DNA of 64,000 nt. Origin: Escherichia coli (GTDB taxonomy: Bacteria > Pseudomonadota > Gammaproteobacteria > Enterobacterales > Enterobacteriaceae). The stretch lies in NCBI RefSeq assembly GCF_003334305.1, contig NZ_QOWS01000008.1. The stretch is one strand, 5' to 3'. Shown here in pieces: positions 49,225 to 52,390 of the stretch. Within the stretch, counting starts at the first letter, position 1. Every line of letters begins with the position of its first letter. The position numbers were made by a program, and so were the translations under genes. Under the pieces are notes generated by a model that searched no databases, had not been told where the DNA came from, and saw only the letters and a program-made list of their open reading frames with translations.

Positions 49225-49713
49225 ATGAGTGAGATAGTAATACGCCACGCAGAAACACGGGATTACGAGGCCATCAGGCAGATTCACGCCCAGCCGGAGG
49301 TGTATTGCAACACACTACAGGTGCCTCATCCTTCCGATCATATGTGGCAGGAGCGACTCGCCGATCGTCCCGGCATCAAGCAACTCGTCGCCTGTATTGA
49401 TGGAGACGTCGTGGGCCATCTCACCATTGACGTGCAACAGCGCCCACGCCGCAGTCATGTTGCCGATTTTGGTATCTGTGTCGACTCTCGTTGGAAGAAC
49501 CGCGGCGTCGCCAGCGCCCTGATGCGAGAGATGATTGAAATGTGCGACAACTGGTTGCGGGTAGATCGCATTGAACTAACCGTGTTTGTCGATAACGCCC
49601 CGGCAATTAAGGTCTATAAAAAATACGGCTTTGAAATTGAAGGGACTGGTAAGAAGTACGCATTGCGTAATGGTGAATATGTCGATGCATATTATATGGC
49701 GCGGGTGAAGTAA
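49225..49713 (+). CDS. yhhY: GNAT-family N-acetyltransferase YhhY (162 aa)
   Basis: Track ORF 49147..49713; the internal ATG at 49225 (AGGA upstream) gives MSEIVIRHAETRDYEAIRQIHAQPEV... with the acetyl-CoA-binding motif (RWKNRGVASALM). Confidence 0.9.
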   Translation: MSEIVIRHAETRDYEAIRQIHAQPEVYCNTLQVPHPSDHMWQERLADRPGIKQLVACIDGDVVGHLTIDVQQRPRRSHVADFGICVDSRWKNRGVASALMREMIEMCDNWLRVDRIELTVFVDNAPAIKVYKKYGFEIEGTGKKYALRNGEYVDAYYMARVK

Positions 49714-49720
49714 GATAGTG

Positions 49721-49745
49721 CCCTTTTTCTGAGATGGAAAAAGGG
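49721..49745 (+). terminator. Hairpin downstream of yhhY
   Basis: CCCTTTTTCTGAGATGGAAAAAGGG, 8 nt after the yhhY stop. Confidence 0.3.
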
Positions 49746-49949
49746 TGTCATTCAAAATCGACATACCTTCCTTTAAGGTATTTATTTGCCCAATACATAT
49801 ATTGAGATTTAACTCATAATTACTTCCTAAAGTGTAATATTTTATTTTTTAATATATACGCCTACAATTTCCTGGAGTAAATAAATAACAATTAACAAGC
49901 ATAATATTGCCATTGATAAAATAGCATGCCATAAAAGGACTTTTCAGGG

Positions 49950-51128
49950 ATGAGTAATATTGTTTACCTGACAGTAACGGGAGAACAACAAGGAAGCATC
50001 TCCGCAGGTTGTGGGACTTCTGAGTCTACAGGTAATCGTTGGCAGAGCGGGCATGAGGATGAAATATTTACATTCTCACTCTTAAATAATATTAATAATA
50101 CGGGGCTTGGTTCACAGTTCCATGGTATAACATTTTGTAAATTAATTGATAAAAGCACTCCATTATTTATTAATTCCATTAACAATAATGAACAATTATT
50201 TATGGGATTTGACTTCTATCGAATAAATAGATTTGGTAGATGGGAAAAGTATTATTATATACAACTAAAAGGCGCTTTTTTATCGGCTATTCATCATCAG
50301 ATCATTCAAAATCAACTGGATACAGAAACAATAACTGTTAGTTATGAATTTATCCTCTGTCAACATCTTATCGCAAATACCGAGTTCAGCTATTTGGCAC
50401 TCCCTGAAAATTATAACCGTTTGTTTTTACCAAATTCAAAAAACCAAACAAATAATCGTTTCAAAACGTTAAACAGCAAAGCTATTGGCAGGCTACTTGC
50501 TGCTGGTGGCGTATACAATGGGAACATTGAAGGATTCAGAGATACTGCGGAAAAACTGGGTGGAGATGCAATAAAAGGCTATGATCAAATACTAAATGAA
50601 AAAACAGCGGGCATAGCGATAGCAACAGCATCTATTCTTTTAACAAAGCGTTCTAATGTTGATACATATACAGAAATAAATAGTTACTTAGGCAAACTTA
50701 GAGGTCAACAAAAACTTCTTGATGGTATAGACATAATAGAAATAATATACATTAAGAGACCTTCAAAAGACTTAGCTAACTTACGAAAGGAGTTTAATAA
50801 AACTGTAAGAAAAAATTTTCTTATCAAACTTGCAAAAACCTCCGAAGCATCTGGAAGATTCAACGCCGAAGACCTTTTAAGAATGAGAAAGGGCAATGTT
50901 CCTCTAAATTATAATGTTCACCATAAACTATCTCTAGATGATGGTGGTACTAATGATTTCGAAAATTTAGTATTAATCGAAAACGAACCATATCATAAAG
51001 TTTTTACTAACATGCAATCACGAATAGCTAAGGGAATATTAGTAGGTGAAAGCAAAATCACTCCCTGGGCCATTCCATCTGGCTCAATTTATCCTCCCAT
51101 GAAAAATATTATGGACCACACAAAATGA
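49950..51128 (+). CDS. yhhZ: YhhZ-like polymorphic toxin (392 aa): N-terminal Hcp-like domain fused to a C-terminal HNH (beta-beta-alpha-metal) nuclease domain
   Basis: The N-terminus (MSNIVYLTVTGEQQGSISAGCGTS...) resembles Hcp/TssD. The C-terminus carries NYNVHHKLSLDDGGTNDFENLVLIENEPYHKVF (HH...N...H). Local sequence is strongly AT-rich compared with the flanking genes. Confidence 0.8.
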   Translation: MSNIVYLTVTGEQQGSISAGCGTSESTGNRWQSGHEDEIFTFSLLNNINNTGLGSQFHGITFCKLIDKSTPLFINSINNNEQLFMGFDFYRINRFGRWEKYYYIQLKGAFLSAIHHQIIQNQLDTETITVSYEFILCQHLIANTEFSYLALPENYNRLFLPNSKNQTNNRFKTLNSKAIGRLLAAGGVYNGNIEGFRDTAEKLGGDAIKGYDQILNEKTAGIAIATASILLTKRSNVDTYTEINSYLGKLRGQQKLLDGIDIIEIIYIKRPSKDLANLRKEFNKTVRKNFLIKLAKTSEASGRFNAEDLLRMRKGNVPLNYNVHHKLSLDDGGTNDFENLVLIENEPYHKVFTNMQSRIAKGILVGESKITPWAIPSGSIYPPMKNIMDHTK

Positions 51129-51619
51129 TGACTAAAACCCAAATAAATAAATTAATAAAAATGATGAATGATTTAGACTATCCATTTGAAGCACCGCTCA
51201 AGGAATCATTTATTGAAAGTATAATCCAAATAGAATTTAATTCTAATTCAACTAATTGCCTGGAGAAGTTATGTAATGAAGTTAGTATTCTTTTTAAGAA
51301 TCAACCTGATTATCTTACTTTTTTAAGAGCAATGGATGGATTCGAAGTTAATGGATTACGATTATTTAGCCTCTCGATTCCAGAACCTTCAGTTAAAAAC
51401 CTTTTTGCCGTAAATGAATTTTATAGAAATAATGATGATTTCATAAACCCTGATCTACAAGAACGGTTAGTGATCGGGGATGATAGCATTTCAATATTTA
51501 CTTATGACATTAAAAGTAACTTTTTTGAAATTAGAGATAATATTGGCACAGAAAATATATTCAGTTCGTTTAGTGATTTCTCTTCATTCTTAAACGAAAT
51601 CATGGACAGTTGTTCATAA
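51125..51619 (+). CDS. yrhA: YrhA-like putative immunity protein (164 aa), translationally coupled to yhhZ
   Basis: The ATG overlaps the yhhZ TGA (ATGA). Acidic 164-aa product MMTKTQINKLIKMMNDLDYPFEAPLKESFIES..., AT-rich. No IS1 sequence interrupts it. Confidence 0.65.
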   Translation: MMTKTQINKLIKMMNDLDYPFEAPLKESFIESIIQIEFNSNSTNCLEKLCNEVSILFKNQPDYLTFLRAMDGFEVNGLRLFSLSIPEPSVKNLFAVNEFYRNNDDFINPDLQERLVIGDDSISIFTYDIKSNFFEIRDNIGTENIFSSFSDFSSFLNEIMDSCS

Positions 51620-51713
51620 TAATCAAAAGGAAACAAAAATCATTGTAAACCATGCCATCTTTTTAGAGATTACCAGCAGAAAATTCCTTGTTCGAAATTT
51701 AGCAGTGCAAGCT

Positions 51714-51869
51714 ATGGAAAAACTTACAACGGAACTACACTCCTTAAGTGAGATGGACCGAAGACATGTAGTCTCTATTTTAGCCGAAATAGCTAATGGC
51801 TATGATGATTTTAATGACATGTTGATTTATTTAGAATTTTACCCGAATCATAAGATTCTGATATCTTAA
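51714..51869 (+). CDS. Small ORF (51 aa) in the AT-rich spacer, possible orphan immunity-gene remnant
   Basis: ATG...TAA frame encoding MEKLTTELHSLSEMDRRHVVSILAEIANGYDDFNDMLIYLEFYPNHKILIS. Below the 60-aa track cutoff, no clear Shine-Dalgarno. Confidence 0.2.
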   Translation: MEKLTTELHSLSEMDRRHVVSILAEIANGYDDFNDMLIYLEFYPNHKILIS

Positions 51870-52068
51870 ATAAGAAAATCCCGTTCGACGTTCTGAAAAA
51901 GAAATCATAAAATATTAGCAGATACTTATTTCGTGACTATATCTTATCCGATGAACTTTTTTCAAAACCAGCATTTAATAATATCTTTGACGAAGATGAA
52001 CGCGTCTTTGCTCAATGTATCACACAGGAATAATAATATAACACTCAACAATAATATTTATTATAATT

Positions 52069-52353
52069 ATGATTACTTATCACGACGCATTCGCGAAAGC
52101 GAACCATTACCTTGATGATGCAGATCTCCCGGTCGTCATTACTCTACATGGACGCTTTAGCCAGGGCTGGTATTTCTGTTTCGAAGCACGAGAATTTCTC
52201 GAAACTGGAGATGAGGCCGCGCGCTTAGCTGGTAACGCACCTTTTATTATTGATAAAGACAGTGGTGAAATTCATTCTCTGGGAACGGCAAAGCCGCTGG
52301 AAGAATATCTACAGGATTACGAAATAAAAAAGGCTACCTTCGGCTTGCCCTGA
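52069..52353 (+). CDS. yrhB: YrhB-like small protein (94 aa), putative immunity-type protein
   Basis: 94-aa ORF MITYHDAFAKANHYLDDADLPVVITLHGRFSQGWYFCFEAREFLETGDEAARLAGNAPFIIDKDSGEIHSL.... Confidence 0.8.
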   Translation: MITYHDAFAKANHYLDDADLPVVITLHGRFSQGWYFCFEAREFLETGDEAARLAGNAPFIIDKDSGEIHSLGTAKPLEEYLQDYEIKKATFGLP

Positions 52354-52360
52354 CAAAATA

Positions 52361-52382
52361 GCCCTCTTCCCACGAAGAGGGC
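52361..52382. terminator. Hairpin between convergent yrhB and ggt
   Basis: GCCCTCTTCCCACGAAGAGGGC between the two stop codons. Confidence 0.45.
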
Positions 52383-52390
52383 CGCTAACC

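Follow-up and report, generated by a model that had tools for sequence, protein, structure and literature searches.

Probable debris of a toxin/immunity module replacement in the yrhA-yrhB spacer of Escherichia coli

The spacer between yrhA and yrhB of Escherichia coli is probably the debris of a toxin/immunity module replacement at the Hcp-ET locus lying between yhhY and ggt. Its 3′ part holds an unannotated fragment of an immunity-type gene (here psi-imm85) whose intact relatives occur in Citrobacter and Budvicia. Its 5′ part holds the yrhD segment, an 82-codon open frame with an internal ATG that is annotated as a gene, changes at the neutral rate and has been broken independently in several lineages. 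Judged from sequence comparison, yrhD is most likely not a functional gene. We base this reading on the observed homology and truncation of the fragment, on the neutral substitution pattern and on the gene orders of related loci.

The E. coli locus, in the order yhhY, yhhZ, yrhA, yrhB and ggt, corresponds to positions 49950-54160 of the window, that is, of the whole 64-kb stretch of DNA that was analysed (Table 1). An earlier note, made from the letters of this DNA, had described about 450 bp of AT-rich spacer between two immunity-like genes, with a 51-codon ATG-initiated ORF inside it, and this description was borne out. With the last base of yrhA at 51619 and the first of yrhB at 52069, the spacer covers 449 bp (51620-52068); its GC content is 30.7%, versus 52% for the window. 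It is not AT-richer than its own cassette: yrhA (28.7% GC) and yhhZ (33.9%) are equally AT-rich, so that the region from about 49714 to 52055 forms a single low-GC cassette. YrhB matches Pfam Imm35 (PF15567, E 4.6e-23), and YrhA, encoded downstream of a toxin domain, matches the YrhA family (NCBIfam NF038335, E 1.5e-36). YhhZ itself matches TIGR03344 (Hcp1, E 6e-34) as well as Pfam T6SS_HCP, Col-Pyo_DNase and, weakly, HNH (E 0.013). In 20 out of 20 non-E. coli loci examined, 10 of which are distinct loci from a genome scan, yrhA lies directly 3′ of a YhhZ-type toxin C-terminal domain. Separately, we observed that the Hcp-toxin gene and yrhB are both frameshifted in the E. coli O145 strain RM9154-C1, with yrhA and yrhD intact, and that yhhY carries an internal stop in Nissle 1917 and other B2 strains; the whole yhhY-ggt neighbourhood appears to be eroding in several lineages.

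Table 1. Features of the yhhZ-yrhB region, in window coordinates.
Feature	Position	Strand	Description
yhhZ	49950-51128	+	Hcp with C-terminal HNH-type DNase toxin (Hcp-ET class), called toxin A
yrhA	51125-51619	+	Presumed cognate immunity gene for the YhhZ toxin domain
K-12 IS1 (IS1E) target duplication, 9 bp	51506-51514		Inside yrhA
Sigma-70 promoter-like site, TAGAGA-18-TATATT	51532-51561	+	3′ end of yrhA; consensus scan
5′ spacer segment	51620-51868		Escherichia-only sequence, contains yrhD
Independent IS1 target, 9 bp, strain LR-71-1	51627-51635		5′ end of spacer
yrhD	51714-51869	+	Annotated 51-codon ORF, apparently unconstrained
psi-imm85	51869-52030	+	Remnant, codons 1-54 of an ~85-aa immunity-type gene
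Deletion junction and yrhB upstream region	52031-52068	+	TAA TAA, then 32 bp AT-rich, promoter-like hexamers
yrhB	52069-52353	+	Imm35-family immunity-like gene; no cognate toxin at locus

Frame 2 of the 3′ part of the spacer reads NKKIPFDVLKKKS, a stop codon, NISRYLFRDYILSDELFSKPAFNNIFDEDERVFAQCITQE and two further stop codons. A tBLASTn comparison of the spacer with related loci gave matches in this frame to a family of 85-88 aa hypothetical proteins from Citrobacter spp. and Budvicia aquatica (P0148-P0180), here called imm85, whose codons 1-54 align with the E. coli stretch at both the protein and the DNA level. Identity reached 51% for C. freundii (E 2e-15), 42% for C. rodentium (E 4e-13) and 33% for Budvicia aquatica (E 2e-7), and residues 2-54 of the 85-aa protein of C. 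youngae matched the stretch with 47% identity. Of 1,859 fragments obtained by six-frame translation of the window, an HMM built from 30 members of the family matched psi-imm85 alone (E 6.5e-7 for the window allele and 6.6e-11 for an allele without the internal TAA), the rest having E above 2. The DNA is colinear with the imm85-Imm35 region of C. freundii, and the remnant occupies the same position relative to the Imm35 gene. Homology ends at 52030, after codon 54, where TAA TAA follows; relative to C. freundii, about 31 imm85 codons and the intergenic region are missing before yrhB. The missing part is the most conserved block of imm85 (D58, R64, R66-M-N68 and E77-Y..G-L-E-R83).

The 5′ end of the remnant is also altered. 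Where the ATG would stand (51869-51871), each of the 13 aligned alleles has AAT. An in-frame TAA at 51908-51910 interrupts the window allele and is replaced by CAA in every non-identical allele. With no ATG and no codons beyond 54, the stretch is a pseudogene fragment and not a functional member of the imm85 family. Its changes among alleles, 5 synonymous and 19 non-synonymous, fit the neutral expectation, and it is unannotated in all RefSeq records inspected. The suggestion in the earlier note that the spacer might hold a decayed or orphan immunity gene thus stands for the remnant at 51869-52030 and fails for the ORF that had been flagged (51714-51869, which is yrhD); the two lie in different frames. 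As a further observation, an imperfect 21-nt tandem duplication (AATGTATCACACAGGAATAAT / AATATAACACTCAACAATAAT, 76% identity) at 52014-52055 spans the end of the imm85 homology and could be the scar of a deletion event.

We examined the surroundings of the intact imm85 genes. In C. freundii and C. rodentium, imm85 starts 1 nt after the stop codon of an Hcp-toxin gene at the same yhhY-ggt locus (proteins of 417 or 402 aa), the toxin of which we call toxin B, and in C. freundii a yrhB homologue follows imm85 directly. The Budvicia homologue likewise starts 1 nt after the stop of an Rhs C-terminal fragment, and this Rhs tip is 65% identical to the last ~150 residues of the Hcp protein from C. freundii. 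The same toxin domain on two delivery platforms, together with the same adjoining small gene, is the signature of a toxin and its cognate immunity gene in polymorphic toxin systems. From its gene position, imm85 would be the immunity gene against toxin B. Neither the toxin B domain nor imm85 has a Pfam family; for imm85, a PDB profile search gave nothing below E 0.3, PADLOC gave nothing and the AlphaFold model was poor (mean pLDDT 60.7). Toxin B-like DNA was absent from 5,426 E. coli genomes: upstream of psi-imm85, E. coli has toxin A (HNH) and yrhA, not toxin B.

Two further genes were seen in the Citrobacter loci. A second conserved small gene next to ggt (L041 4600-4836, L021 4807-5070 and L024 2581-2826), encoding 78-87 aa and beginning MITETELNVLKVMAEKD, sits at the yrhB position or after it and has no Pfam family; it may be a further orphan immunity gene or a winged-helix-like gene. 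C. youngae and C. freundii, unlike E. coli, have an additional gene of 294 aa upstream of the Hcp-toxin gene and downstream of yhhY (L021 1671-2555 and L041 1590-2474); the N-terminus of its product is signal-peptide-like.

Comparison of the toxin genes points to an exchange. Over residues 1-229, YhhZ shares 74% identity with Hcp-toxin B of C. freundii, whereas the two show no similarity beyond, from which we infer that they are probably alleles with exchanged C-terminal toxin tips. The YhhZ-type tip and yrhA also occur together on other N-termini, in Leclercia, Dryocola, Kluyvera, Enterobacter, Atlantibacter and Lelliottia; since they travel together, they form a mobile toxin/immunity module. 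In C. youngae, the order is yhhY, the 294-aa gene, Hcp-toxin, yrhA, an 85-aa gene, an 87-aa gene and ggt: toxin A and yrhA are followed, after a gap of 20 bp, by an intact imm85. The order of psi-imm85 and yrhB in E. coli is that of imm85 and Imm35 in C. freundii.

A simple scheme would account for these arrangements. An ancestor would have carried Hcp-toxin B, imm85, yrhB (Imm35) and ggt, the state kept in C. freundii. The module of HNH toxin A and yrhA would then have replaced the toxin B tip and left imm85 intact, a state represented by C. youngae. The last step, in the E. coli lineage, would have been the loss of the start codon and of the conserved C-terminal third of imm85, the remainder drifting neutrally; we propose that imm85 decayed because no toxin B was left to guard against. 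We derive this order of events by parsimony, from three or four gene orders.

The cassette as a whole is variable in E. coli, where at least three states of the yhhY-ggt interval exist: it holds the full cassette in about 70% of complete genomes, and in others either yrhB alone or nothing. In 233 E. coli genomes yhhY is directly followed by yrhB, with no cassette, and in others ggt comes directly after yhhY. Homology to the cassette-less, yrhB-only strain VE-V10-F resumes at position 52053, hence the spacer in its entirety goes with the cassette rather than with yrhB. The alignment showed no direct repeats at either end of the cassette (L006 and L049; window 49714-52055). Insertion sequences have also reached the locus. 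The IS1 target site of K-12, which the earlier note had proposed to locate by alignment, lies inside yrhA and not in the spacer: the BW25113 locus matches the window to 51514 and resumes from 51506. An independent insertion was found in strain LR-71-1, whose locus matches to 51635 and resumes from 51627, and strain ET745 carries an IS1-flanked deletion of 49640-52146.

We then considered variation among alleles. The spacer is present as a single chromosomal copy in 3,783 of 5,426 complete E. coli genomes; the commonest allele, at least 99% identical to the window and with yrhD intact, accounts for 2,786 of the 3,809 matching genomes. Conserved noncoding sequence in all strains, which the earlier note had named as the counter-case to its reading, was not seen: the spacer turned out to be the fastest-diverging part of the cassette. 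Between the window and B2-type alleles (e.g. Nissle 1917) it differs by 6-11% (10.6% in the 5′ spacer, 6.4% in yrhD and 6.5% in the 3′ spacer), versus 2.0% for yrhA and 2.1% for yrhB. Next to the cassette, yhhY (49225-49713) showed a pS of 0.23 among the sampled alleles and, in strain K_EC180, a DNA divergence of 16.6%, far above that of the adjacent cassette; this high synonymous diversity suggests recombination or allelic exchange at the left border of the cassette.

The substitution pattern separates yrhD from its neighbours. Nei-Gojobori pN/pS was 0.03 for ggt, 0.14 for yhhY, 0.20 for yrhA, 0.22 for yrhB and 0.37 for yhhZ, against 1.7 for yrhD. All four of yrhA, yrhB, yhhZ and ggt had a significant excess of synonymous changes. 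The 18 changes at yrhD among 7 distinct alleles comprised 2 synonymous, 14 non-synonymous and 2 nonsense, in agreement with the neutral expectation (p=0.55), and its pN of 0.049 equalled the synonymous divergence of the cassette (0.043-0.047). In B2-type alleles the ATG is changed to ATA and a stop is present at codon 23; another allele group carries a stop at codon 39, one member having in addition a 9-bp duplication. From these 7 distinct alleles we conclude that yrhD is apparently without detectable purifying selection.

The annotation of yrhD is nevertheless widespread, and a genuine gene has to be weighed. The ORF is identical (100%) to the RefSeq 'protein YrhD' WP_001307436.1 and at the same position between yrhA and yrhB; 'yrhD: protein YrhD' is annotated at the match in K-12 derivatives and in thousands of other genomes. 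It is the same gene as yrhD of E. coli K-12 (b4612), the product of which the records call only hypothetical protein or protein YrhD, and it is listed as Swiss-Prot P58037, with no assigned function (PMC3575317). In the literature, the main texts mention yrhD only as annotation, in SELEX or in primer names. From an upstream GTG at 51705 the same frame extends as 54 aa, and further upstream it stays open, over ~93 codons, as far as the 3′ end of yrhA; a single-nucleotide change at the yrhA stop fuses both; some assemblies do encode a YrhA-YrhD fusion of 246-247 aa (P0025 and P0029).

On the one hand, a lineage-restricted small protein gene, either born young de novo or an accessory factor of the cassette, driven by a promoter of its own in the A/B1-type allele and lost in other lineages, would agree with the RefSeq and Swiss-Prot annotations, with the intact frame in the majority allele and with the constitutive sigma-70 promoter assigned to yrhD by SELEX; the stop-free run of 82 codons within the spacer is also borderline long (P=0.05 in dinucleotide-preserving shuffles). 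On the other hand, an ATG ORF of at least 51 codons arises by chance in 17% of such shuffles, and no Shine-Dalgarno-like sequence was seen by eye upstream of the ATG. Only 2 changes in yrhD are synonymous versus 16 non-synonymous or nonsense, while 57% of the changes in neighbouring yrhA are synonymous, and the nonsense mutations and the start loss arose independently in several lineages. YrhD has no Pfam or NCBIfam family match. A word-indexed search of 5.8 billion proteins returned Escherichia alleles and fragments only, and exhaustive HMMER searching of 1.84 billion representative proteins found no credible homologue outside Escherichia. Taken together, we hold a genuine small protein gene to be quite unlikely. 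Very unlikely is the joint reading by which yrhD would be a young Escherichia-restricted de novo gene in the debris of the swap, transcribed from the SELEX sigma-70 promoter and retained only in the A/B1-type allele, and by which, separately, toxin B and imm85 would form an undescribed Hcp/Rhs-borne family.

The HMMER query was a reconstruct of ~106 codons that joined yrhD (YrhD residues 1-47 included) to the frame-2 stretch, and neither half had relatives beyond Escherichia above the threshold. The underlying idea of one frameshifted gene was later rejected: the 85-aa Citrobacter protein aligns separately, its residue 2 falling where the frame-2 stretch starts, thus yrhD is not its N-terminus. 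The two non-Escherichia matches of this search were discarded as tandem-repeat proteins, scoring by the sum of weak stretches. Also discarded was an apparent YrhD variant with 76% identity (P0013): its reads had been bisulfite-converted, as seen from a C content of 0% and over 1,100 C-to-T differences from the window; we noted that the Logan contigs L009-L012 (SRR27475765 etc.) are assemblies of bisulfite reads whose proteins pose as divergent homologues in the protein collection. A 3,996-bp contig of a metagenome-assembled genome named 'Flavihumibacter sp.' (CABHOW010000200.1) encodes YhhY and YrhD at 100% and YrhA and YhhZ at 99% identity to the window; it is almost certainly E. coli contamination. 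A decayed duplicate of yrhB (Imm35) was also considered for yrhD: the BLAST hint (E 0.06) was unconfirmed by Pfam, with no match at E up to 10, and a local Imm35 HMM matched yrhB only, not YrhD.

The origin of the 5′ segment is less clear than that of the 3′ remnant. In tblastx and blastn comparisons, the 249 bp at positions 51620-51868 resembled neither any of 26 related loci nor any other part of the window, and they had no phage or plasmid match except to three E. coli chromosomes filed as plasmids; these three PLSDB 'plasmid' records (H91-H93) of 4.8-4.9 Mb are E. coli chromosomes. Several candidates were rejected. The 3′ end of a displaced toxin B gave no match in any frame to the toxin B C-termini of three species. 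An IS or MITE remnant was dismissed, given a median of one copy per genome, chromosomal only, and no terminal repeats; the repeats in the spacer are short, AT-rich chance repeats only. As for a small RNA, the best Rfam matches were eukaryotic snoRNAs far below the gathering score, and the fold was unremarkable (z -0.32 versus shuffles). The segment may be donor DNA that arrived with toxin A and yrhA, or a relic of something unsampled.

A more specific form of the latter is that a second gene was displaced and left the segment behind, for example as what remains of a former toxin gene's 3′ end or of a further immunity gene, now decayed or unsampled. The yrhD stop (51867-51869) overlaps the start position of imm85 (51869-51871), resembling the toxin-stop/immunity-start junction of C. 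freundii, and a relic would explain the long open frame, both its 82 codons in the spacer (P=0.05) and its ~93 codons into yrhA. Against this, no frame matches toxin B, though the adjoining imm85 remnant keeps 51% identity, and nothing was matched among the 26 related loci, the 1.84 billion representative proteins, Imm35, phages or plasmids. We regard such a second relic as unlikely.

The spacer also carries regulatory marks. The promoter-like site at the end of yrhA corresponds to a motif that genomic SELEX lists for yrhD as a constitutive RpoD promoter marked by H-NS (PMC3946193). A SELEX peak of the sigma-S holoenzyme lies between yrhD and yrhB (PMC5493296), and yhhZ and yrhA are among the H-NS-bound promoter islands (PMC3661553). 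Our consensus scan gave promoter-like hexamers at 51885-51913, 52038-52067 and 52045-52073, and no terminator-like site was found in the spacer. Considering the SELEX peaks and the missing terminator, the spacer is likely transcribed.

These marks could mean that the spacer is mainly regulatory, through a promoter or H-NS silencing for yrhB, or through a small RNA, its ORFs being irrelevant. The sigma-70 and sigma-S holoenzyme binding in or beside the spacer, the H-NS marks and the three hexamer sites speak for it. However, promoter-like matches were no commoner than in shuffles (12 found versus 12.2 expected), there was no Rfam family and the RNA fold was no better than that of shuffles. The spacer is, moreover, the least conserved part of the cassette, and the sequence upstream of yrhB differs in strains lacking the cassette. 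A mainly regulatory spacer therefore seems unlikely to us. Regulatory marks are compatible with debris of a module replacement, as a passive by-product: the current role of the spacer would be that of H-NS-bound, AT-rich DNA through or from which yrhB is transcribed.

For a heavily used genome, this means two corrections of annotation: yrhD (b4612) is probably non-functional, and a pseudogene fragment lies unannotated between yrhD and yrhB. The annotation of yrhD was already known; the decayed immunity gene fragment in the spacer was seen annotated in none of the records inspected. More generally, the locus gives a snapshot of Hcp-ET evolution, in which a toxin tip is swapped together with its immunity gene and the former immunity gene decays, and toxin B with imm85 of Citrobacter and Budvicia provide an uncharacterised candidate toxin/immunity pair. 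To polymorphic-toxin specialists, the content of the spacer is unsurprising: it is the ordinary debris that the exchange of toxin modules leaves at a type VI secretion toxin locus.

At polymorphic toxin loci (Rhs, CdiA and Hcp-ET), the toxin genes may be followed by remnants of toxin tips and by immunity genes that are orphaned or displaced. The E. coli locus resembles them in that a C-terminal toxin and its immunity gene would have been exchanged at a fixed locus with the N-terminal delivery part kept, and in that a former immunity gene lies downstream, followed by yrhB/Imm35 without a toxin of its own. Unlike intact orphan immunity genes, the E. coli copy is start-less, 3′-truncated and neutral, and no displaced toxin-tip fragment is recognisable. 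It differs from intact imm85 by its lack of an ATG, of residues ~55-85 and of a cognate toxin, and, in this allele, by a nonsense codon. Neither the spacer nor yrhD nor the remnant of imm85 comes up in the Hcp-ET literature consulted. The likeness to Hcp-ET itself lies in yhhZ, an orphan Hcp gene with an HNH/colicin-DNase-like C-terminus, followed by the small immunity gene yrhA; from this architecture, YhhZ and YrhA are presumed to be the published Hcp-ET1 and ETI1.
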